From: a virus
DNA: 64,000 nucleotides
Virus record (IMG/VR): IMGVR_UViG_3300010224_000001
Location: 258,571-322,570 of that record
Strand: one strand, 5' to 3'
Made by a program: the position numbers and the translations under genes. Under the pieces are notes generated by a model that had not been told where the DNA came from, did not search any database, and worked only from the letters and a program-made list of their open reading frames with translations. The number at the start of each line of letters is the position of its first letter. Positions within the stretch are counted from its first letter, which is position 1. Of this stretch, positions 8,577-32,567 are shown one piece after another.

Positions 8577-9446
8577 TTAGCGAGGACGGCGGTTGTAATT
8601 AACACGGTAGGCTTGAATATCATAACCAAGTAATTCGACTTTGTTATTTTGCCAGTGTTCGTTACGCACTTGGACAATTTCGCCATTTACTTCAATCGTG
8701 CCGAACTGAAGATTAACAGTACCGGTAATTTTAACATATGCCTTTGCATCACCAAAATCTTGAATGCCGTCAAAATTAAGAACTTGGTCACGGTAATTAC
8801 TCGCAACAGACGGTGTGAATACATTCAAAGCTTGATCGAGTAAACTGACTTTCACGACAGCGCCATTCACATTCGCGTAGATGTTAGCCAGGCTTACTGC
8901 CGGATCAATGCAGTCGGTGCAATCTTGAATGCCGGTATTAATGAGCGCATCAACAAAGCTAATACCTAGCAGATCGAGTTTCTTACCAAATTGAAGAGCG
9001 GAAGTCAGAATCTCTTGACCTGCGAGTTCAACAACGTTAGGAGTCAGTGTGTTGATGTTGACGAAGAAATCAGCAGACTCTTTCCTGTAGACCGGAACAA
9101 TTGGAAGACCAGGAAGAGTTGCTTCTGCTGGAGCTTCTTCTGTTAAAATATAGCCACTGGTATCTTCGGCACCATACAGTTCCCAATCCTCAGCGAAGAT
9201 GTCTTCCATATTAGGAATCCAGTTCTTAACTAAGCAATTATCTTCGCCAAGTCTGGTTTCTACAGCCATTGAAAAAGTATGGTCTTGTTTACCTTCGCTG
9301 TAATAGGTAAACTTAAACACGTACCTTTTCATAGGTGGAGTTTCCCAAGCTAGACGAGTAACATGAAAGCCTCGTTTCATGCGTTCTAGAGCATCGCCAA
9401 AGGAGAGACCAGTTCTCTTTTCTGCTTCTTGTGTAATTTCGGACAT
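8577..9446 (-). CDS. DUF2829 (Tad2-like) domain fused to an unknown C-terminal domain
   Basis: LSFGDALERMKRG..VTRLAW and WIPNMEDIFAEDW signature motifs. Confidence 0.75.
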   Translation of the reverse strand: MSEITQEAEKRTGLSFGDALERMKRGFHVTRLAWETPPMKRYVFKFTYYSEGKQDHTFSMAVETRLGEDNCLVKNWIPNMEDIFAEDWELYGAEDTSGYILTEEAPAEATLPGLPIVPVYRKESADFFVNINTLTPNVVELAGQEILTSALQFGKKLDLLGISFVDALINTGIQDCTDCIDPAVSLANIYANVNGAVVKVSLLDQALNVFTPSVASNYRDQVLNFDGIQDFGDAKAYVKITGTVNLQFGTIEVNGEIVQVRNEHWQNNKVELLGYDIQAYRVNYNRRPR

Positions 9447-9521
9447 GTTTTGTTTTAAGGTAATAAGAGTTGAATCCTACGCCTCCTAATATTGGAAGCG
9501 TAGGTATTTTGTTATGCCGTC

Positions 9522-9701
9522 TTAACGAATCGAAGCGCTATTACCTTCGAGCACACGCACTTCGTCATCAAAACGAGTATCCGGCACTTTGAAGGTAGAG
9601 CTAGGTTCTTGCTTAGCAGATTCGGTTTTCTGGTTTGCTTTGACCATTCGAGCGATGTCGTCAGTCAGAGGGACTTTACGTTTGGTGATTGGATCGTCCA
9701 T
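9522..9701 (-). CDS. small hypothetical protein (59 aa)
   Basis: ORF filling the gap before the hairpin at 9476-9504. Confidence 0.55.
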   Translation of the reverse strand: MDDPITKRKVPLTDDIARMVKANQKTESAKQEPSSTFKVPDTRFDDEVRVLEGNSASIR

Positions 9702-9707
9702 TTGTAT

Positions 9708-11303
9708 TTATTCAGCCTTAGGAGTATCGGTTTCAAGAGCAATGGATTCTGGTTTATACGAAAGATCATCGATGTGGAAAATCGCACCATTCATACCGCG
9801 AGGTTGCTTTACTTCATCTTGCGGATTAGCTTTCAGATAAGCTTCGACTTCTTCTGGGGTCGGAACTTGACCAGGATCGCCAGTGATCATCTCATTAAAA
9901 GATGCGTTCGACATTTCTTGACCATCCAGAAGCGGAGTCAGATTGACATCAGGATCCACATGACCACCGTCATCTACTGGAGCTTTCGTACCGTCTTCAC
10001 CTTTAAGAACTGCAAACTTTTGACGCCAGCTAACTTCAAGAGCTTTTTCTTCCTCAGGAGTCAAGAAGATAGTACGACCTTTATCATCAGTAATACTAAC
10101 AGTACGGGTCTTATCGGTAGTATCCGCAGTGCCGTCAAGATTACGTTTTACGTTCATGCTAATGAGCGGGACGAATGGCTTGAGCACCGGAGGATCGACC
10201 GACATGTCCATCGTCGTGCTATCTACATTACCAAGGAAGACTTGGAACAGCGCTTCCGCAGTTACGTCACTTGCACAGTTAAGGAAGTTAGCGCGTTCTT
10301 CCGGATCAGTGATCTCTTCAACGCCTAGAGCAAGCTTAAGTGGTTCAGTAGAAGTAGTGATCGCTTCAGCAACCTTTGCTTCTTCTTCCAAGAAATTACT
10401 GTTAGCTTGCACTTGATCCTTAAGACTCTCAGCCAACTTACCAGCCACATCCAGCGCATCACTCAGCTTCGTTTTACGATCAGCCACGTCCGCTTCCAGC
10501 ATAGCGCGCGTCCAAGGTTCGAGCGTATATTCAGAATCCAGCAGTTGGCGCGCAGTCATCGGCTCCATGACTTCCAGTTCATCTTCACCTGCGGTCAGTT
10601 TGTAACCCAATGGCAGAATCATGTTCATGATCACGCCCAGGTGCAGAATCTCTGGATCGGTATTTTGGGTGATGAACTGATTAGCGAACTCGAACCTGAC
10701 TTCAGTCTCGCTAACCTGTACTCCGCTCTTGTTATAAATACGGGTTTCTTCAGTCAGGATTTCACGAACTGAATTACCAATGACAGTATTGAACAAATCA
10801 ATATCGCCATTCGGAAGGTAAATAACGTCCGGAGCATCAATGTGACCGCCGTAACCAATCGAGACTTTGTTAGCCAGTTTCGATTCGCCTACCTTATTGG
10901 TACGGAAGTACGGGAAGTACAGCTTCTCACCGTTTTCCAGAATCGAGCAGATTGCACAATACGGAAGGATCTGACGGAAGTTACGATTACCGGTATACGT
11001 CTGACCATTTTCATCGTAATTTATTTGATTGTCCAACATCTCACGACGACCAATGAACAGATAACTCTTTACTTCTTTCAGCCACTGCACCGCCGGATAA
11101 GCATTAATGCCATCTTTAAAGTTTTCTACATTCCTGACCACAACACCGTTACTGGAGAATGAAATGGGGCTGAAATAATCAGCATCGACAGCTAGGATGA
11201 ATTGCGGATGTTTGGGATCTTCTACATGTTGCTGTTGATCTTCGTTCCACTTATATTTAAACTGAAGTGCGACAGCGAGTTCTTGCGGATTTTCTACTTG
11301 CAT
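9708..11303 (-). CDS. Nudix-like phosphoesterase with a long acidic C-terminal extension
   Basis: SIGYGGHID...VREILTEE Nudix-box variant, HLG and LEPW; ATG at 11303 with AAGGA RBS. Confidence 0.7.
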   Translation of the reverse strand: MQVENPQELAVALQFKYKWNEDQQQHVEDPKHPQFILAVDADYFSPISFSSNGVVVRNVENFKDGINAYPAVQWLKEVKSYLFIGRREMLDNQINYDENGQTYTGNRNFRQILPYCAICSILENGEKLYFPYFRTNKVGESKLANKVSIGYGGHIDAPDVIYLPNGDIDLFNTVIGNSVREILTEETRIYNKSGVQVSETEVRFEFANQFITQNTDPEILHLGVIMNMILPLGYKLTAGEDELEVMEPMTARQLLDSEYTLEPWTRAMLEADVADRKTKLSDALDVAGKLAESLKDQVQANSNFLEEEAKVAEAITTSTEPLKLALGVEEITDPEERANFLNCASDVTAEALFQVFLGNVDSTTMDMSVDPPVLKPFVPLISMNVKRNLDGTADTTDKTRTVSITDDKGRTIFLTPEEEKALEVSWRQKFAVLKGEDGTKAPVDDGGHVDPDVNLTPLLDGQEMSNASFNEMITGDPGQVPTPEEVEAYLKANPQDEVKQPRGMNGAIFHIDDLSYKPESIALETDTPKAE

Positions 11304-22861: not shown

Positions 22862-24331
22862 TTAGTCAATACCTTCAAGAGCACGAACGCAAACGTCCTC
22901 TTCGAATTTCTGACGCCATTCACGACGACCTTCGTTCAACCACAGGCGGTGTCCCGGACCTGGAGTAAAGAACGAATACAAGCTGTTCTCGTTAATAGCA
23001 TCATACACTTCGAGGTTACCGTTTTCATCTTCACGGCAACGCACCAGACCCGACAAGGATTTCTTACCAAGATCGGATTTCGGCTCTTTCAGAACACGTT
23101 TCCAGCCGCCGTCACGGAACTCAGCAATAACCTTCATGCTGAAGCTAAACCAGTCGCGGCTACCATCGTTAGCGATACCGCCACCGCAACCCAACAGGAA
23201 ATTGTCAACGCACCAGCCTTTATCGACAGCACCTTTAATGACAGACTCGAACGACTCTACGTTGATACCGTCACCATACAGCGCGCCAACGGCCCACGGC
23301 AGATTACGATAACCAGCGTCATTCGGAGTCGAACCAAAAGTCTCTTCCAGCCAGCCTAACACTTGCGCCAGCTTAGTAGTTGGGTCACCTGAGTCAGGAC
23401 GAGTCACAAGGCGAGCACCGCAGTTAAGGATTTCGTCCTTGAACTTCGGAATGAACTCCCTTACGAAACGTTCATCATCGTAGGTATCAGGAACAGCAGA
23501 AGCCACAGGAATACCAATACCGGCTTTGGCACGAGCCGCCACACGGTGCAGAAGTTCCATAACCATCTGCATAGCACCGAAGTCATCTTTTGCTTCAGCA
23601 TTAGAATTCAAGCACATGGTGGTGTGCTCGGTAGCTACAACAGAACTAGTGCGAGGTTTACCGGTGTTGTAGAGACGCTTAATGTACCCATTAGCGCGTC
23701 CACAATCGCTACCTTTGAAGATTGCCGCGTGCGCCATGCCTTTGAGAACAGGTGTTTCGTCCGGAGAATCTGCACCACGATCACCAAAGAAGTGTACGAA
23801 GTAATCAAGCATGGCCATGTTACCGCCAGTCATCTTGAAATACTTAGCAGCCACTTTACGCATATAGCGGCAAATCGAAGCAGTCGTCGACATCGACCAG
23901 ACCGTCGATTGAATCACTGGCTCAAAATACGGAACCAGCCATTTGACTTGTTCGTCTTCATGAGTAACAAGAAGAATCGGTGTTTGTGGTTTAACGATAC
24001 GACCTTCTTCCACACCAAAGAAAGTAAGGGGAATGCGACCACCGTAAACACGGAGGATGTATTCCCAACCTTCACGGTTGAAAGTATAACCTTGCTCAGT
24101 GACTTCAACTTCTGCTTCGTCAATCATCCACTGCTCGAGTCGCGCCGTAGCAAACACATGCGAAATAAAGGTTTGACCCATTGCGACGATTTCATCAGTA
24201 AACCACGTTTTCTTACGCGGCACTACTGCTGATACCAGTCGCTTAGATTTCTTAGGCATCTGATAGACGTGGTCGAACTTGTAGGTGTCACACCAGAGGA
24301 TGATATTGAAAGGTTTAATAAGTTCTAACAT
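22862..24331 (-). CDS. nadV: nicotinamide phosphoribosyltransferase (NAMPT)
   Basis: DTYKFDH, HFFGDRG, F.GSD, ATEHT, DTYD, RPDSGDP, GDG, GCGG, KKSLSG. Confidence 0.93.
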   Translation of the reverse strand: MLELIKPFNIILWCDTYKFDHVYQMPKKSKRLVSAVVPRKKTWFTDEIVAMGQTFISHVFATARLEQWMIDEAEVEVTEQGYTFNREGWEYILRVYGGRIPLTFFGVEEGRIVKPQTPILLVTHEDEQVKWLVPYFEPVIQSTVWSMSTTASICRYMRKVAAKYFKMTGGNMAMLDYFVHFFGDRGADSPDETPVLKGMAHAAIFKGSDCGRANGYIKRLYNTGKPRTSSVVATEHTTMCLNSNAEAKDDFGAMQMVMELLHRVAARAKAGIGIPVASAVPDTYDDERFVREFIPKFKDEILNCGARLVTRPDSGDPTTKLAQVLGWLEETFGSTPNDAGYRNLPWAVGALYGDGINVESFESVIKGAVDKGWCVDNFLLGCGGGIANDGSRDWFSFSMKVIAEFRDGGWKRVLKEPKSDLGKKSLSGLVRCREDENGNLEVYDAINENSLYSFFTPGPGHRLWLNEGRREWRQKFEEDVCVRALEGID

Positions 24332-24397
24332 GATAATTGAATCCCAATTATTTACGTCACCAGTGAGGGACTGGTAAGCCCGTTCTTGTTTGTGGTA

Positions 24398-25492
24398 TTA
24401 GACGAAGTACTCAACCATATCTGGATGGTCGTCGTACATAATCTCTTTAGCGCTCAGGATGTGGCCAGTCGGAATCCAATCCACGCCGTTATTTGGCAGC
24501 CAAGTTGCTTTCGCATCATCGCCACCTTTAGCACGAGGCGGATTACCATGATCATCACGCGGTTCCAACTTGAAGTAGAAACCATGAGTGACACGAGGGA
24601 TACCGTTATTGCGCGCTGGGTGATCAAACACATGTTGCTTACGCAGAGCAAGCCGCAGCGTTTTCTCAGATACACGCAAATTGGTTTCTTCGTAGATTTC
24701 CTTAATCACTGAATCAAACAGCGACAAGTTTCTCTCTTTGAAACCACCTGGTAATGCACGGCAACCATAACCAGGACCATGTTCATTTGCACGAGTCACA
24801 GTCAGGATATGTCCAGCACACTCAATAATCGCATCCACACAAATGAAGCTGAGCGTATCCTGGTAGGGATAGTCTTTGAACTTCTCTGTCTCGCTAAGGT
24901 AATAGCGATAATCACGCTGTGCGTTCGTATCGAACTCACGGTGTTCCAGGAAGATCTTCATCTGCGGTGGCAGGTGTTGATCTAAGAGTATACTGTTGCC
25001 AAGCTTTTGCTCGTTAGCGAACCACTCATCGCGCAGACGAGTAGCGTCGATATCAACCTGAACACCCAAATCACGACGTTTCCATTGCGGGAACTTCTTG
25101 AGATAGTAAGTAGTCTGATCTTTATCTTGACCGTACAGCGTTACGTTAGAATCATGAATACCGTTAGGTACTGCAAATTCATACACGTGTCGCTGTACCT
25201 CTGACTCCCAACGTGCTTCCTTGTAAAGATTATCAAACAGAGGCACAATCGAATAGTTACTCGTGAAAGTCGCGAGCACATGTTCGAGCACACGTTTACG
25301 TTCGATAAAATCAAAAGGATTCTTGTTGGACTTACGACGGTTCGCAGATCCAATCAGAATAAGCAAGTGGGTATTCTCTTTTGCCATTTCTTTGAGCATG
25401 CGAACATGTTCATTGTGCAGCATAGAGAAACGAGCAATTACCACAGCTAAAGTTTTACCACTAAAGTTTTGACTGCTAGTTACAATTTGCAT
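24398..25492 (-). CDS. bifunctional NMN adenylyltransferase / ADP-ribose Nudix hydrolase (NadM-Nudix)
   Basis: RFSMLHNEH (HxGH variant), IGSAN..KNPF..ER, ATRLR; ALPGGF...KEIYEET Nudix box, GGDDA, DH. Confidence 0.9.
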   Translation of the reverse strand: MQIVTSSQNFSGKTLAVVIARFSMLHNEHVRMLKEMAKENTHLLILIGSANRRKSNKNPFDFIERKRVLEHVLATFTSNYSIVPLFDNLYKEARWESEVQRHVYEFAVPNGIHDSNVTLYGQDKDQTTYYLKKFPQWKRRDLGVQVDIDATRLRDEWFANEQKLGNSILLDQHLPPQMKIFLEHREFDTNAQRDYRYYLSETEKFKDYPYQDTLSFICVDAIIECAGHILTVTRANEHGPGYGCRALPGGFKERNLSLFDSVIKEIYEETNLRVSEKTLRLALRKQHVFDHPARNNGIPRVTHGFYFKLEPRDDHGNPPRAKGGDDAKATWLPNNGVDWIPTGHILSAKEIMYDDHPDMVEYFV

Positions 25493-26799: not shown

Positions 26800-27063
26800 T
26801 TAGAGCTTAACGCAGGAAATGGCTACCGTTGGATTCTCCGTCCCGCCATAACCAATACTAGAAGCTGTCGTGCACTTAATGCCGTCATCGGTCCAAGTAT
26901 TAACTTGGATATTGCGAGTACCCAAACCTTTAAAAGTAAAAACTTTCATGTCGGTAGTTACAGCAGGAATAACAGCAGCTTTTGGTTTGTCAACATTAAT
27001 AGCTAGCCAAACCACAATACCAATCAGACTAACTTTGAGAATATCTTTAGCGATTGATTTCAT
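26800..27063 (-). CDS. small membrane-anchored protein
   Basis: N-terminal TM, two Cys; ATGA coupling. Confidence 0.7.
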   Translation of the reverse strand: MKSIAKDILKVSLIGIVVWLAINVDKPKAAVIPAVTTDMKVFTFKGLGTRNIQVNTWTDDGIKCTTASSIGYGGTENPTVAISCVKL

Positions 27064-27338
27064 GTCTTGTCTTTCTCGACAGGCTGCCACTCTGGTAGAT
27101 CTAACTTGTCAATACCTTCGCCTGACAAGTAACCAATCACCCACCATTCGCGACCTTCTTTATATTCAGCCATCAGCGTATCGCCACGTGAGATTGAATA
27201 CTTGAAGAAACCTTCTCGGCTTTTACGTTCAACCATCCACGGATGATTCATTAATTCATCGAGTGAATTAAACGTAATCCTAACACGGTCTTCTTCATCC
27301 TGATCAACGAAACCAGGTACGTGTTGTGCAAATTCCAT
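27060..27338 (-). CDS. hypothetical protein
   Basis: 92-aa ORF. Confidence 0.7.
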   Translation of the reverse strand: MEFAQHVPGFVDQDEEDRVRITFNSLDELMNHPWMVERKSREGFFKYSISRGDTLMAEYKEGREWWVIGYLSGEGIDKLDLPEWQPVEKDKT

Positions 27339-27341
27339 TTG

Positions 27342-28424
27342 TTACTCCCAGTTGAGAGTACCGCCAGTTTTAGCTTCCACGGCTTTAGCTGCAACTGCAG
27401 TACCACCTTCGTTACGCAGACCAAATGCTTCAGCAAACCACGGGAAGGGATTCTTAGCACCTGGGAACAGAACACCAATACCGACAGCAGCAGCGCGTTG
27501 ATTCGCTACCGATTGCAGATAGGTCAGGAACATATCAGCGTTCATACCGAGTATGTCGGCAGGCAGTGTTTCTTTAGCTACCGCAAACTCCAATTCTACA
27601 GCTTTACGAATCAACGCAGTCACATCTGCAAAGATAGGTTGCCACAAATGCGGGTTCTCGATACGGATCGTACTAACGATGTTAGCTGCTGCTTTGAAGT
27701 GCGTCAGTTCATCACGCAGCATCAGTTGGTATTGTTCCGAAGTCTTTACCATCTTGCCGTTACGACCCAGCGTCAGCATCTGAGTAAAGCTAACTGTCGA
27801 GAACAGACCCTTCAGGATACAAGCATATACGACAAGCGACTTAAGGAATTGCGCGTCGCTCTCAGGAGTGCCGGTTTTGAACTGAGGGTCTTGGAACAGA
27901 TTCAGATACGGTTTAATGAATTCGTTCTTAGCACGAACTGAAGCGAAACTATTGTAAGTGTCGTAAACGGCTTGCTCGTCAATCTTGAGTGCATCACTCA
28001 CGTGGTAATAGACGTGGTGACGAATTGCTTCTTCCATACCTTGACGCAGCAAGTACTGACGCACTTCTGGAGCAGTCACGTGACGATAGATACCAATAGC
28101 CAAACCACCTGCACGGTCATTAAGCGTAAGCAGACCAAGATTACGAATCACCAGTTGCTTCTCTTGTTCAGACAGTGACCCAGAATTCCACTGAGCGACA
28201 TCTTGTTCCATGATGTACTCTTGCGGCATCCATTGATTCTCACAAGCCTTCAGGTACTGATCCCAAGCCCATTTATACTTAAACGGCACGAGTTGGTTCA
28301 CGTCAGTAGTTGCGTTAATCATGCGTTTGTCTGACGCGTTAACCCGTTTAGAAGTATCAACGTCACTATCGACTTGTTCTGCATTTACTGCCGACGTTCC
28401 TTCATCATCCCAATCCAACGACAT
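27342..28424 (-). CDS. nrdB: ribonucleotide reductase beta-subunit homolog with a degenerate metal/radical site
   Basis: DVNQLVPFKYKWAW..Y...W.PQE, YLLRQ..EEAI, RDE..H, NPFPW and GG.L.W tail typical of proteobacterial NrdB; key residues substituted. Confidence 0.9.
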   Translation of the reverse strand: MSLDWDDEGTSAVNAEQVDSDVDTSKRVNASDKRMINATTDVNQLVPFKYKWAWDQYLKACENQWMPQEYIMEQDVAQWNSGSLSEQEKQLVIRNLGLLTLNDRAGGLAIGIYRHVTAPEVRQYLLRQGMEEAIRHHVYYHVSDALKIDEQAVYDTYNSFASVRAKNEFIKPYLNLFQDPQFKTGTPESDAQFLKSLVVYACILKGLFSTVSFTQMLTLGRNGKMVKTSEQYQLMLRDELTHFKAAANIVSTIRIENPHLWQPIFADVTALIRKAVELEFAVAKETLPADILGMNADMFLTYLQSVANQRAAAVGIGVLFPGAKNPFPWFAEAFGLRNEGGTAVAAKAVEAKTGGTLNWE

Positions 28425-28453
28425 GCTAATTCCTTTAATTGATAATACAAAAG

Positions 28454-28480
28454 AGTAGGTAGGAGTTAATCCTACCTACT
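28454..28480 (-). terminator. intrinsic terminator
   Basis: AGTAGGTAGGA/TCCTACCTACT perfect stem followed by CTTTT. Confidence 0.8.
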
Positions 28481-28484
28481 TGAT

Positions 28485-28838
28485 TTATTTCCGAGCTTCT
28501 TGCAGTAGTTCGGTTTGACGTTGCTGAATGATTTCTTCAGTAAGCCAGATTCCAGTATCGCACTTGTAATACGGTTCAGGATCTCTACCAGCAAAACCAG
28601 CACGTTCGCAATGATGAAGATGTTGATAATCCGAGAACAAAAGAGTACGCATTTGGAAAAGCTCTCGCTGCTTGGCATTATTACTGTCAATAAACTTACC
28701 GACCGCCACGCAGAAACCAACTACCACCGCCACAACTATCATCATAAAGAACGTTGTAAAAATACCTTCATCGTGGTCAACAACGAAACCGATAAATCTT
28801 CCCAAGATTTCCTTGCCCCGTTCAAGTATCTTACTCAT
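28485..28838 (-). CDS. membrane protein with a C-x2-GFAGR-C-W domain
   Basis: TM helix plus HCERAGFAGRDPEPYYKCDTGIWL. Confidence 0.75.
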   Translation of the reverse strand: MSKILERGKEILGRFIGFVVDHDEGIFTTFFMMIVVAVVVGFCVAVGKFIDSNNAKQRELFQMRTLLFSDYQHLHHCERAGFAGRDPEPYYKCDTGIWLTEEIIQQRQTELLQEARK

Positions 28839-29103
28839 CGGAAGAATCTTTCTTACTCTTCTTCTTAATCTCACCACGCAACCAAACACCATTATCGCAC
28901 TGGTAAGTAGGTTCTGCGTTACGACCAGCAAAACCACTCCTCACACACTTGTGATCTTGCAGGTACTTGTGATCTGCTGGCGTAAGTTCATTTGACTTCT
29001 TATCCCAATAAATCATAGCACCAATAACAATCCCTATCAGCACTAAGCTGATGAGTGCTTCAGCCAGGGTGACCTCTTCACAGCTGCAGTGACATTTCGA
29101 CAT
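28831..29103 (-). CDS. membrane protein, paralog of 28485..28838
   Basis: TM helix plus KCVRSGFAGRNAEPTYQCDNGVWL. Confidence 0.75.
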   Translation of the reverse strand: MSKCHCSCEEVTLAEALISLVLIGIVIGAMIYWDKKSNELTPADHKYLQDHKCVRSGFAGRNAEPTYQCDNGVWLRGEIKKKSKKDSSDE

Positions 29104-29117
29104 GTACGTATCCTTAG

Positions 29118-29303
29118 TTAAGCATCCCAAATAACTGCATCAGCTTTACCCGTGAAAACCATCCAAGCAAGCTTAAAACGAAAACGCAAAGCAAACCACT
29201 GCGGACGAATACCGCGCATTGGCGCCCAGTGATCGTTCGGTAGAAGAGCACTCGTGAGAGTGTATCTGATATCAGTAGCGTTAACTAGTTGCGGTAGATC
29301 CAT
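29118..29303 (-). CDS. small hypothetical protein
   Basis: W.P.R...RFKLAW.VFTGKADA motif common in phage micro-proteins; RBS present. Confidence 0.65.
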   Translation of the reverse strand: MDLPQLVNATDIRYTLTSALLPNDHWAPMRGIRPQWFALRFRFKLAWMVFTGKADAVIWDA

Positions 29304-29412
29304 GTTTCTTCCTTTTCTTTATAAAAGAATCTAAACACCACACAAGAACAAATACCCAAAGAAAGAGTAACCAGAATAGATTAGAGGCAATGCTCTTGCA
29401 ATTATTGTACAT
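29281..29412 (-). CDS. small membrane peptide (43 aa)
   Basis: Single TM helix followed by KKRKK; fills the gap. Confidence 0.45.
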   Translation of the reverse strand: MYNNCKSIASNLFWLLFLWVFVLVWCLDSFIKKRKKHGSTATS

Positions 29413-29426
29413 CTGTTTCCAGAATG

Positions 29427-29753
29427 TCATGTTTGCTCCTTAGATCCAGCGCCATCTACATGGTACTTGCCGTTAGCCAGATTGTAGAGTTCAAGCTCTT
29501 CCCACCAGCCATTTGAACAATGCCACCAGATCACACCCTCTAACTTAGTGCGGGAGCAGTCATTAAGGACTGCATAGGTCAGCATTCTCTGTTCTGATAC
29601 AGCAGTCGGATCATTCTTCTTTGCGGCAGTGAAATACACTGTCACTAATGAAGCAATAACTATTGCTAGAACTGTAATGCAAGCTAAAAGTAGAAGAGGC
29701 TTTTGCTTGACATAATCGCTATGTTTCTTTAATGACGACAGTGGGGTGCTCAT
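29427..29753 (-). CDS. membrane protein, distant paralog of the 28.5-29.1 kb pair
   Basis: TM helix plus NDCSR...WHCSNGWW. Confidence 0.65.
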   Translation of the reverse strand: MSTPLSSLKKHSDYVKQKPLLLLACITVLAIVIASLVTVYFTAAKKNDPTAVSEQRMLTYAVLNDCSRTKLEGVIWWHCSNGWWEELELYNLANGKYHVDGAGSKEQT

Positions 29754-30002: not shown

Positions 30003-30299
30003 TCACACCGCCACAGGAGCTTTGATGCCTGGATGAGGATCGTAACCTACGATTTCGAAGTCTTCAAACTTGTAATCGTAAATTGAAGCTGGTTTACGGG
30101 TAAACTTCAGTTTAGGCAGTTCGCGCCAGGTGCGCTGCAGCTGGGTCTCAACTTGTTGCATGTGGTTCGAGTACAGATGAACATCACCACCAGTCCAAAC
30201 AAAGTCACCGACAGCCATATTAAGCTGTTGAGCAAACATGTGCGTCAGGATTGCATACGAAGCGATATTGAACGGCACACCGAGGAAGACGTCGGCTGA
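30003..30299 (-). CDS. thyA: thymidylate synthase exon 2
   Basis: [15 protein letters not shown]...GGDVHLY.NH...IKAPVAV. Confidence 0.95.
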
Positions 30300-31415
30300 C
30301 ATTGTGTTCAGAATAGTTCGTTAGACTATTCCCGTTAGGTTTCTTCAATTCCTAACTGCTGCATGTCGCCATGCAGAGCAGACTATATCACGATCTCATT
30401 TCCGAGACCTCTCCCGTTTCGACTCCACTTGGAGCCTACGCCTTAAAGGCTAGTCGTTGGGCATTTCGGTAAGATAACTGTAACCCGAATATTTATCTTT
30501 ACTGCTATTGATTCGATAAACCATCAGGGCTGGTGAAATGTTTAGTTGACGAGAAGCTTCAGTCAGTGATTCGTAGACTTTATTGTCAACTTTAACTTTA
30601 CGAGAATTAGCAGGTAACGTATCTCTGGCTTTACCAAGTTCAGATAGTCGTTTCCTAGTTTCTTCGCTATGAACCTTTCCGTAGAACGGATTTAATTCAC
30701 CTACTCGTTTTGATGCATTCTCAGAGATCTTGCGACGATGTTCAGCGCTAAATACTGCACCTAAGTTATACGTGTTTCCTTTGTGTACTTCAGAAATACG
30801 CTTCTTAACTTCATCAGTGTGGATTCGGCCCCACATGCCATTTTTTGAACCTGGTCTTCCGAAGAGTAATCTCTTCTCCTCTTTCGTTAACTCATGCATT
30901 CTGTTAATTAATGTCTGTTTGATTCTAGCGATACGTTCCTCACGTTTAGGATCTCGCGTAAGTGTATCACCGCCTCCCTTAGCAACAAGGAGTACATTGA
31001 GTAACAGTTTTGTGGCTGAGTAACGATCGAGTAATTCTTGTTCTAACTCGTAAGCGTCTTCCCTTGTTTCTGTTGGGAATATCGTTACTTGGAAATATGG
31101 ATCTTTCTTCCAAGCTGCTTGAAACTTAGAGCAATGATGAATGCCTTGGTTCAATTCACGAATGTGTCGTTCAATTCGTTTTTTGATGTTCTGAGAACTA
31201 CCAACATAGAACTCACCAGTTCTTGGGTTGGTTAGAATGTATACTCCTGTAAATTCCATGTCATGCTTTCGTAATAAAGACATAGTATATTACTAGGACT
31301 ACCATTCAATGTTTGTTACTTACCGTTTAGCAACGGATTGTCTCATTTCTGAGAGGTTCCCGTTTTAGAGAGATTTGCTCTTAGGATCACTCCTAAGAGG
31401 CGCTCAGTTAAGCGA
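30300..31415 (-). mobile_element. self-splicing group I intron (IA2-like, 1116 nt) in thyA
   Basis: Exon 1 ends in U (CAG CGT); P1 GCGU/GCGC with a U-G pair; R element CAACGACTA; S element GATATAGTC; terminal G; spliced product restores YQR-SAD. Confidence 0.92.
30450..31283 (-). CDS. intron-encoded GIY-YIG homing endonuclease
   Basis: GVY...YVGSS..R...H...E; NUMOD3 repeats (NPFYGKVHSEETR) and a C-terminal HTH. Confidence 0.95.
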   Translation of the reverse strand: MSLLRKHDMEFTGVYILTNPRTGEFYVGSSQNIKKRIERHIRELNQGIHHCSKFQAAWKKDPYFQVTIFPTETREDAYELEQELLDRYSATKLLLNVLLVAKGGGDTLTRDPKREERIARIKQTLINRMHELTKEEKRLLFGRPGSKNGMWGRIHTDEVKKRISEVHKGNTYNLGAVFSAEHRRKISENASKRVGELNPFYGKVHSEETRKRLSELGKARDTLPANSRKVKVDNKVYESLTEASRQLNISPALMVYRINSSKDKYSGYSYLTEMPND

Positions 31416-32567
31416 ACGCTGGTACAACTGGCAAGACAAACGCTGCCGCGGAATATCTTCTTCATCGAAAATAGCGTGGTACTTTTCCCGATTACCATTA
31501 GCCATCCCTTGGAACCACATCGTGTCTTTAAAACGATGATGTTCGCGGCTCGTAGACATTTCGGCTCGTTCAGTTACAGTCAAATCAGTTACGTAGAATT
31601 GAAACAGTGAATGGCAAGGAGCCAGCTTCATCAGCGGTAGTTCAGCCACGTTCCAAGCCGAAACGATAATGCGACGCGAATCAGGATTATTCTTGAGAGT
31701 ATTCATGACCTCTTCGATCTGGTCGATGAATTTCTCCAACATCATGTATTCACCCGGAACTAGATCACGACGTGCAGAACCAGTAGGAAGATAGCCTTGC
31801 TTTTTGAAGATTTTAATTTCTTCAGCATGACGTTCAGGATGAAGGATTTGGACATCATGCCACTTACGCCATTGTGCACCGTATACGGGACCGAGTTCAC
31901 CATTCTTATCAGCCCACTCATCCCAGATGGTTACACCGTTATCTTGCAGATACTTAACATTGGTATCGCCTGCCAGGAACCAGATCAGCTCATGGACAAT
32001 AGATTTGAGATGCACCTTCTTCGTAGTCAAAAGAGGAATGCCTTCGTTCAAATCGAAACGCATCTGGCGACCAAACACAGAAGTCGTGCCGGTGCCTGTG
32101 CGATCCGTCTTCACAGTGCCATTAGCAAGAATATCACGCATCAGATTCAGATACTGATAGTCGGCATTATTCTTGATCTTCTTGCTGAAGGTAAACTGGA
32201 TTACATGGTTGTCTGGAATGTTCGTGACCGGCAGCAGATCTTCGTATAGAACGTTGTCAATAGTAATACTAACCGAAGTGATGTGTTCTTTCGACACATC
32301 TGTTCCGGCTGCTTTGAAAGTTTCGCTGATATCTTCTTTCGTAGCATAGTTGATTGTCAGCGAATTCATCCACATCGTCAAGACGTCGTTTGCTAACGTC
32401 GATGAGTTAGGATGCAATGTCAAGAACAAGCGGTTGGTCTTGGTGGCTCCCGTATCCGCATCAATGATGCAGTTTTCAAACAGATGTTTCAGTTGCTGTT
32501 GAAGAAGATGACCGTTCTCGACGCACGAGGTTCCGGCTGGATAACGAGCAATGCGAATATTTTTCAT
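31416..32567 (-). CDS. thyA: thymidylate synthase exon 1, with a ~135-aa N-terminal extra domain
   Basis: [52 protein letters not shown]. Confidence 0.95.

Follow-up and report, generated by a model that had tools for sequence, protein, structure and literature searches.

The window is a stretch of 64,000 nucleotides from a virus (IMG/VR record IMGVR_UViG_3300010224_000001, positions 258,571 to 322,570), i.e., the last 64 kb of a 322,570-bp jumbo-phage record that carries direct terminal repeats and is rated 100% complete. On its minus strand, an open reading frame (ORF) with an ATG start and a TAA stop encodes P0001, a homologue of 360 amino acids (aa) of NrdB, the beta subunit (R2) of class I ribonucleotide reductase (RNR). 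DNA precursors are made de novo by RNR alone, and the enzyme is a focus of the phage–host conflict over nucleotide pools. A sequence-only reading had taken this gene for a non-catalytic beta subunit which has lost metal ligands and the relay Tyr and has kept the tail that docks on the alpha subunit (R1, NrdA). The features of the gene are given below, with residues mapped by a HMMER alignment of P0001 to Chlamydia trachomatis R2 (2ani/1syy/4d8f).

27342..28424 (-): P0001 coding sequence, stop codon included (ORF, Pfam, NCBIfam, HMMER, AlphaFold2/Foldseek)
28431..28480 (-): upstream hairpin and T-run (28454-28480), then an AAAGGA ribosome-binding site (28431-28436), by consensus scan alone
28401..28424 (-): N-terminal tip MSLDWDDE, aa 1-8 (motif scan)
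28218..28346 (-): N block, aa 27-69 (RVNASDKRMINATTDVNQLVPFKYKWAWDQYLKACENQWMPQE), which contains W65 and is the best-kept part (consensus identity)
28230-28232 (-): W65, C. trachomatis W51, relay Trp, kept (HMMER alignment)
28116..28118 (-): D103, C. trachomatis E89, first metal-ligand position, kept as Asp (HMMER alignment)
28029..28031 (-): E132, C. trachomatis E120, second ligand, kept (HMMER; invariant in alignments A2/A3)
28020..28022 (-): R135 (codon CGT), C. trachomatis H123, Arg in place of the first His ligand (HMMER alignment)
28008..28010 (-): Y139, C. trachomatis F127, radical-site Tyr position, kept (HMMER alignment)
27810..27812 (-): K205 (codon AAG), C. trachomatis E193, Lys in place of the third-ligand Glu (HMMER alignment)
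27699..27710 (-): E239-L-T-H242, C. trachomatis E227/H230, E-x-x-H ligand pair, kept here and missing from several relatives (HMMER)
27372..27392 (-): tail linker A345...A351, both radical-relay positions Ala (alignments)
27345..27368 (-): C-terminal tip TGGTLNWE, aa 353-360, the R2 part that binds the large subunit (motif scan)

The Escherichia coli equivalents of the mapped positions we take to be W48, D84, E115, H118, Y122, E204, E238, H241 and Y356.

A folded R2 with an altered metal site and radical path

A match to Pfam PF00268 covers P0001 from end to end (E 6.7e-62, 209.9 bits, cut-off 33.6), and the best profile match of the protein is NCBIfam NF005550/PRK07209, the NrdB of betaproteobacteria and Pseudomonas, with 404.1 bits against a curated cut-off of 309. 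It is 48-52% identical to the NrdB of Methylophilaceae, Massilia and Collimonas, and the nearest solved structures found by HMMER are 6Y2N and the C. trachomatis R2 entries (E 1e-84 to 1e-89). An AlphaFold2 model built from a 61-sequence alignment has a predicted local distance difference test (pLDDT) value of 86.8 and a predicted template modelling (pTM) score of 0.84, with disorder limited to residues 1-12 and 338-354. The nearest structure to this model in Foldseek is C. trachomatis R2 (1SYY/2ANI), with a template modelling (TM) score of 0.92 and a root-mean-square deviation of 1.6 Å, and this superposition together with the confident model indicates that the fold of P0001 is intact. P0001 thus shows the profile score, the all-helical ferritin-like fold, the radical-site Tyr with the relay Trp, and the tail-tip motif of a class I RNR beta, but it lacks the six-ligand set, the C-terminal relay Tyr/Glu and a cognate alpha in its genome. 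Pfam profile searches of the complete 322,570-bp genome gave a single match to PF00268 and none to PF02867 or PF00317 (NrdA), PF13597 (NrdD) or PF07972 (NrdI), so that the absence of nrdA previously noted for the window extends to the whole genome.

The strings EEAIRHHVY, ILKGLFS and AVEAKTGGTLNWE, on which the sequence-only reading was based, are all present in P0001, and their canonical counterparts EEAIHTHAY, IMEGLFF and FFETRVTEYQTGGALSWD were found in alignments of Burkholderiales NrdB. The HMMER alignment and the codons confirmed the three changes which that reading had reported, namely Arg for His at R135, Lys for Glu at K205 and Ala for the relay Tyr at A351, as well as the intact frame, the retained radical-site Tyr and the W48 equivalent (W65). 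The ligand set of P0001 is therefore D, E, R, K, E, H, in which four of the six ligands are retained. A351 corresponds to C. trachomatis Y338, i.e., the relay Tyr of the canonical EYQ, in a tail which canonically reads FFETRVTEYQ. A second relay loss is found at A345, where the canonical Glu of FFE, six residues before the relay Tyr, is also replaced by Ala. Among the non-self homologues listed, 118 of 119 carry D-E-H-Y-E-E-H-Y at the mapped positions (the exception, P0002, is described below), showing that the deviation of P0001 lies beyond ordinary variation. W65 is the sole invariant column of the 61-sequence alignment A4.

With Arg and Lys at two of the six ligand positions, the site should not hold a dimetal centre, and with Ala at both C-terminal relay positions, no radical should reach alpha by the known path. 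P0001 is thus predicted from these residues to be a folded, catalytically dead RNR beta. The site retains three carboxylates and one His in addition to the Arg and Lys, which brings it near charge balance, and such an arrangement would resemble a metal-free way of stabilising the four-helix bundle.

Both ends of P0001 are host-like, as had been proposed, in that MSLDWDDE and L-x-W-[DE] are motifs of canonical NrdB of the NF005550 type. The N-terminal motif M.{0,2}L.[WF][DEGN][DE] occurs in 110 of 118 canonical homologues and in six of eight degenerate relatives, and the exact MSLDWDDE opens two canonical NrdB sequences. An L.W[DE] end, the motif with which TGGTLNWE agrees, closes all 118 canonical homologues and seven of the eight degenerate relatives, with TGGTLNWD, TGGALNWE and SGGTLNWE among the canonical ends. 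The opening motif of canonical NrdB (110 of 118 in P0003-P0120) can be written M-L-S-[FW]-[DE]-[DE]-E, which is a mirror image of L-[SN]-W-[DE] at the alpha-binding C-terminus, and both are retained in the dead phage copies. Identity to the canonical consensus differs widely between regions: 0.81 in the N block, which includes the relay Trp stretch NQWMPQE and has a mean top-residue frequency of 0.89 within the degenerate clade; 0.80 in aa 112-131; 0.32-0.60 in the four ligand helices; 0.18 in the tail linker (aa 336-352); and 0.62 in the last eight residues. As judged from the alignments, both termini and two blocks that are predicted to form surface have thus been retained, whereas the metal site has gone together with the path by which the radical would leave.

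An AAAGGA Shine-Dalgarno sequence lies 7 nt 5' of the start codon, and just upstream of the gene the consensus scan found a stem of 12 pairs followed by a T-run, which by itself does not imply function. The P0001 gene appears to open its own unit after this predicted terminator-like stem. The early-promoter motif TATATTAC has 2 matches in the window (1.76 expected), none of which is near the R2 gene.

Degenerate relatives, selection and the phage slot

The closest relative, P0270, is a 94% identical variant that keeps every mapped residue (350 of 361 positions similar). In P0002 (60% identity), the positions of R135, K205 and A351 are likewise Arg, Lys and Ala, and the first ligand is replaced by Gly; Arg at the R135 position is found in P0270, P0002 and P0125. 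Another six relatives, with 43-46% identity, show ligand sets that are degenerate in other ways, namely V-E-V-Y-K-Q-Q (close copies P0124 and L025), A-E-R-F-E-Q-H, D-E-T-Y-K-Q-Q, N-E-M-Q-K-V-H and Y-E-S-F-K-L-H, and all six have lost the relay Tyr. Lys occupies the third-ligand position in seven of eight degenerate relatives, and the radical-site Tyr is replaced by F or Q in three of seven. This loss of the Tyr, together with ligand sets that differ from member to member, leaves no conserved new cofactor site. P0001, with two ligands lost and the Tyr and Trp retained, appears by sequence to be the least degenerate member of the clade, and it is thus the best member in which to ask what was lost first and whether metal binding persists.

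These data bear on the possibility that P0001 is a new active R2, in which the remaining D/E/E/H, together with Arg and Lys, would sustain a Y139 radical with little or no metal, as in class Ie, that feeds host NrdA. Y139 and W65 are kept, the Arg and Lys are conserved down to 60% identity, and the site is near neutral (three carboxylates vs. Arg and Lys), as the class Ie sites formally are (10.1101/348268). According to the same source, three carboxylates are replaced in class Ie NrdF (VPK/QSK), which retains the two His, the Tyr and an unbroken radical path, needs NrdI and is encoded in an nrdFIE operon. P0001 resembles class Ie in its partial ligand set and in having a Lys in the site (10.1101/348268). 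However, the Lys of class Ie replaces a bridging Glu and both His are retained there (10.1101/348268), both tail relay residues of P0001 are Ala, its genome has no match to NrdI, and the Tyr and the ligands vary among the relatives as described above. An active R2 of this kind is therefore considered very improbable.

When the nine degenerate rows were constrained to one clade, there was no likelihood cost (P value of the approximately unbiased test, p-AU, 0.93). In a quick tree, a branch with 98% support in the Shimodaira–Hasegawa-like approximate likelihood-ratio test (SH-aLRT) separates the degenerate rows from 35 rows which are nearly all canonical. However, the test also allows a tree in which the degenerate clade is joined with L002 and L023, two canonical phage copies in a syntenic position (p-AU 0.574); this does not prove such a joint clade, and the trees agree with either a single or a repeated capture. 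The end branches of the degenerate rows are 0.16-1.04 changes per column long, vs. 0.02-0.23 in those canonical rows which cluster with the NrdB of betaproteobacteria.

Such long branches, together with the lack of NrdA in the genome, would be expected if P0001 were decaying, i.e., a functionless leftover of a lost nrdAB operon. Several results contradict this explanation. The frame is open and full-length in every degenerate copy whose DNA was read (the window, L006, L025 and L027), and the degenerate relatives from metagenomes, at 43-60% identity, are full-length protein predictions. The ratio of nonsynonymous to synonymous change (dN/dS) is usable for the one pair that is close enough, L025 vs. 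L027 (75% aa identity), whereas the dS of the window gene is saturated; for this pair, dN is 0.163, dS is 1.41 and dN/dS is about 0.12, i.e., not near the value of 1 that had been named as the sign of a decaying gene. In addition, constraint is strongly uneven along the protein, and the 94% variant differs mostly by conservative changes. Decay is thus hardly credible. The earlier proposal of a selected non-catalytic beta is instead well supported, since loss of ligands is seen repeatedly in a clade whose genes are intact and under purifying selection, in phages without an alpha. An alignment with homologs, which had been suggested as a check, likewise shows that the substitutions recur, with the Arg and Lys kept to 60% identity.

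Degenerate copies were found on three viral contigs, L006/G003 (271 kb, complete), L025/G005 (272 kb, complete) and L027/G006 (226 kb, 83% complete), none of which has a match to PF02867. Their 21-kb loci share 14-17 ORF matches with the window genome in the same order, a few of which are antisense shadows, and the R2 slot common to all four phages reads Tmk ... ThyA ... small membrane proteins, R2. In two more distantly related contigs, L023/G007 (86% complete) and L002/G001 (82% complete), a canonical R2 with full ligands and relay residues sits in the same neighbourhood (7 ORF matches), and no large subunit was found in either record. L019/G009 (249 kb, complete) also has a canonical R2 with all ligands, the relay Tyr and the tail, and no large-subunit match. 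By their sequences, these three are candidate orphan active R2s that would need host NrdA, as in poxviruses. The complete jumbo phages G002 and G008 have both RNR subunits. The simplest series that we infer from these genomes runs from nrdAB to an orphan active R2 reliant on host NrdA, and then to a dead R2 that may still dock.

The proposal that the gene was captured from a Burkholderiales/Pseudomonas-type host stands as far as the family type is concerned, but a recent capture does not. The gene occupies a conserved jumbo-phage slot, no canonical NrdB comes closer to its product than 48-52% identity, and it falls among the other degenerate phage copies, which argues against recent acquisition. 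A metagenome scan with P0001 kept 80 loci, all of them 47-51% identical, which is the level of canonical NrdB, and none closer. A structural protein of the window's phage is 39.5% identical to that of Burkholderia phage FLC9, the nearest cultured relative by that protein, and about 32-34% identical to those of Ralstonia and Burkholderia phiKZ-like phages; no R2 was found in FLC9. No degenerate R2 copy was found among cultured phage records, in a collection from which close relatives of this genome may be absent, and in Pseudomonas putida phages nrdA and nrdB are both present. The best cultured match, 'Acinetobacter phage MD-2021a' (CAKLQH020000007.1, L015), was set aside because it looks like bacterial chromosome, with an adjoining nrdA and genes for a two-component regulator and LysR/TetR regulators.

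The P0001 gene lies in a metabolic block with a thymidylate-kinase-like gene, a split thyA, small membrane proteins and NAD genes. All four phages have kept R2 in this block, together with the genes for thymidylate kinase, thymidylate synthase and NAD salvage, which would fit an RNR-independent or scaffold role. The ferritin-like body would then be re-used, e.g., to tie ThyA/Tmk to host NrdA in a dNTP (deoxynucleoside triphosphate)-synthesis complex, or for a task that has no link with RNR. The free drift of the ligand positions beside surface blocks that stay is also in line with such a role. However, the retained parts are exactly the tail tip and the relay-Trp surface of canonical NrdB, which points to the canonical partner, and a scaffold is thus thought rather improbable.

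The thymidylate synthase gene in this block (window 30003-32567, minus strand) is in two pieces:

31404-32567 (-): thyA N-terminal part (Pfam positions 2-169)
30450-31283 (-): GIY-YIG/NUMOD3/I-TevI-type endonuclease gene between the thyA parts
30003-30302 (-): thyA C-terminal part (Pfam positions 169-266)

Short megablast matches near 30354-30397 are to intron-annotated coliphage DNA, and the split region matches no Rfam family, including the group I intron, at the gathering score. An intron is thus suggested by the split ORFs, the GIY-YIG gene and the short megablast matches alone. In the relative L006, thyA is uninterrupted. Between thyA and the dead R2, at 28485-29753 (-), are three small paralogous proteins, each with an N-terminal hydrophobic stretch, that share the C-terminal motif C-x3-G-[FY]-A-G-x6-7-Y-x-C-x2-G. 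They hold the same place in three related loci (L006 9476-9796, L025 about 9300-9960), and the one that was scanned matches no Pfam family. The NAD salvage pair at 22862-25492 (-) consists of a nicotinamide phosphoribosyltransferase (NAMPT_N + NAPRTase) and a cytidylyltransferase-like/Nudix fusion (NMN-adenylyltransferase, NadR/NMNAT type), and it adjoins the dead R2 in L025 and L027 too (47-69% identity). A 92-aa ORF at 27060-27338 (-) starts 4 nt past the R2 stop (TAA CAA ATG) and, by this spacing, is probably co-transcribed with R2; it has no Pfam match, and tblastn found no match at the corresponding place in L006, L025 or L027.

Possible roles on host NrdA

Because the phage has neither another R2 nor an R1, any partner of P0001 must be the host's. 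The R2 of class I RNRs holds on to R1 mainly by its C-terminal peptide. We hold with moderate confidence that P0001 is a non-catalytic, tail-anchored beta which occupies the NrdB site on host NrdA. P0001 would dock on host class Ia NrdA through the conserved tip TGGTLNWE, with a possible contribution from the N block, which would face alpha, and perhaps from the host-like N-tip, and it would take the place of host NrdB. The target would be a NrdA with a double ATP cone, of the Pseudomonas/Burkholderiales type; two ATP-cone stretches are present in the bacterial NrdA genes that adjoin the closest canonical NrdBs. The likely ancestor of the P0001 gene is an orphan R2 of a phage that was still active, in partnership with host NrdA.

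Vaccinia F4 offers a precedent for such docking, since F4 without its last seven residues is reported to show about 90% less co-precipitation with host R1, and the catalytically dead F4 Y300F to be dominant-negative via host R1 only with the tail present (PMC2900304). The least certain step is the net effect, for which a competitive titration or down-modulation of host RNR would be the default, as with this engineered dead poxvirus R2. Its sign is the least secure point of the proposal, since dNTPs should be in demand in a phage that lacks an RNR.

Several points weigh against a tail-anchored dead beta of this kind. An inhibitor looks costly for an RNR-less phage, which should need host dNTP synthesis. 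Y139, W65, D103, E132, E239 and H242 are all retained in P0001. Divergence (0.40 identity) affects the helix-B region, a possible determinant of dimerisation, and dS is saturated in every comparison of the P0001 gene by the Nei–Gojobori (NG86) method (3.1 with L006, undefined with L025, 2.0 with L027). The sole pointer to the host is the likeness of one structural protein to that of FLC9 (39.5%), a phage without an R2. A complex prediction of the host-type NrdA core (L102 280-930, A5) with the P0001 tail (321-360, A3), run without controls, gave a score of 0.16 (mark 0.32) and bears on docking in neither direction.

The main rival is a partner role like that of yeast Rnr4, in which P0001 would form a beta/beta-prime heterodimer with host NrdB, or would stabilise or re-tune the host holoenzyme, and thereby raise or deregulate dNTP synthesis. 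One variant is that NrdA is kept out of the inactive alpha4 ring induced by deoxyadenosine triphosphate (dATP). The off-state of the Pseudomonas aeruginosa-type NrdA with two ATP cones is reported to be this ring, which binds one beta2 (PMC5794259), and the yeast alpha2-beta-beta-prime enzyme is reported to use the ligand-deficient Rnr4 (PMC3824934). Such a helper would explain why the N block and aa 112-131 remain about 80% identical to host-type NrdB next to a remainder at 32-60%, and an RNR-less phage should gain from more dNTPs. The relatives with a canonical orphan R2 also suggest an ancestral helper role. However, the diverged helix-B region does not favour dimerisation with NrdB, and the fast evolution seen in the end branches is odd for a subunit that must fit the highly conserved host NrdB. 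A helper of this type is thus regarded as rather unlikely.

The breadth of R2 degeneration was sampled with the 150 best representatives of 50%-identity clusters from a library of 1.84 billion proteins (P0121-P0269). Among these, 79 fill all six ligand columns, and 36 of the 79 have at least one non-canonical ligand; clustering at 50% over-represents fast-evolving groups, and the most distant alignments may be imperfect. Many of the 36 still end in L-x-W-D/E. In a separate observation, the family alignment drew 80 viral loci, of which 57 (L034-L087 and L089-L091) encode an R2 that has a Glu first ligand, Ile/Val at the radical-Tyr position and an LEDDF tail, and by sequence these R2s look like a tyrosine-less group that is common in viral contigs. 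No description of a dead R2 in phages was found in the literature; in its text, a survey (Dwivedi 2013, PMC3653736) mentions two phages with nrdB only, which are not named there. What P0001 adds is the least degenerate member, the conserved Arg/Lys pair, host-like termini that have been quantified, and a link to phages with canonical orphan R2s.

A bolder and quite tentative proposal is that dead R2s are a large, fast-evolving class of phage effectors, and that P0001 is not a plain inhibitor but an adaptor, anchored by its tail, that keeps host NrdA in a state of the phage's choosing. P0001 might then block the dATP-induced alpha4 off-state, or tether NrdA to phage ThyA/Tmk beside the phage nucleus. 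If so, the phage would control dNTP supply without any phage-encoded radical chemistry, and the series NrdAB, orphan active R2, dead R2 would record the origin of this control.

Whichever its effect, a naturally dead R2 that is conserved in RNR-less phages and has an alpha-docking tip would, if the proposed docking is right, differ from the unusual R2s already known and be a virus-made ligand of the host large subunit. If inhibitory, it would be an inhibitor of bacterial class Ia RNR that is itself a natural protein, and a possible lead against Burkholderia/Pseudomonas-type enzymes; if activating or re-tuning, it would be a new viral way to control dNTP supply.

Comparison with known R2 systems

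Unusual R2s are already known, including a non-catalytic one in a cellular enzyme (Rnr4), active orphans (poxviruses) and metal-free active ones (class Ie). The class Ia NrdB of the NF005550 type has the same N-tip, N block, fold and C-terminal tip as P0001, which differs from it in the Arg/Lys ligand swaps, the Ala relay positions and the lack of a cognate NrdA. The nearest structures, C. trachomatis R2c (PDB 1SYY, 2ANI, 4D8F, 4M1I) and 6Y2N, bring in class Ic. R2c has a Glu first ligand, a Phe radical site, all six ligands and the relay Tyr, whereas P0001 has Asp and Tyr at the first two of these places and has lost two ligands and the relay Tyr. P0001 thus falls outside class Ic, with Tyr/Asp instead of Phe/Glu and two ligands missing. 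It falls outside class Ie as well, with one His and one Glu replaced, the relay Tyr lost and no PF07972 match in the genome. The betaherpesvirus M45/UL45 proteins are R1 homologues without catalysis which are kept for another role, but they are large subunits, and of an animal virus.

Vaccinia F4 is, like the R2 of this phage, a viral R2 without an R1 of its own, which relies on host R1 via a C-terminal binding peptide (PMC2900304). P0001 shares with the F4 type the absence of R1 and the kept tail, but not the intact catalytic residues; the canonical R2s of G009, G007 and G001 fit this type. In addition, natural F4 is described as active and its dead form as man-made and harmful to the virus (PMC2900304), whereas the dead form in P0001 is natural and conserved. 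Yeast Rnr4 is, like P0001, a ligand-deficient, non-radical R2 kept by selection (PMC3824934). However, Rnr4 pairs with the active Rnr2 of the same genome, and the phage of P0001 has no other R2 or R1. Among known systems, yeast Rnr4 and the dead form of vaccinia F4 made by engineering may come closest to the way in which P0001 works, but unlike either, P0001 is the sole RNR gene of its genome and is dead by nature.

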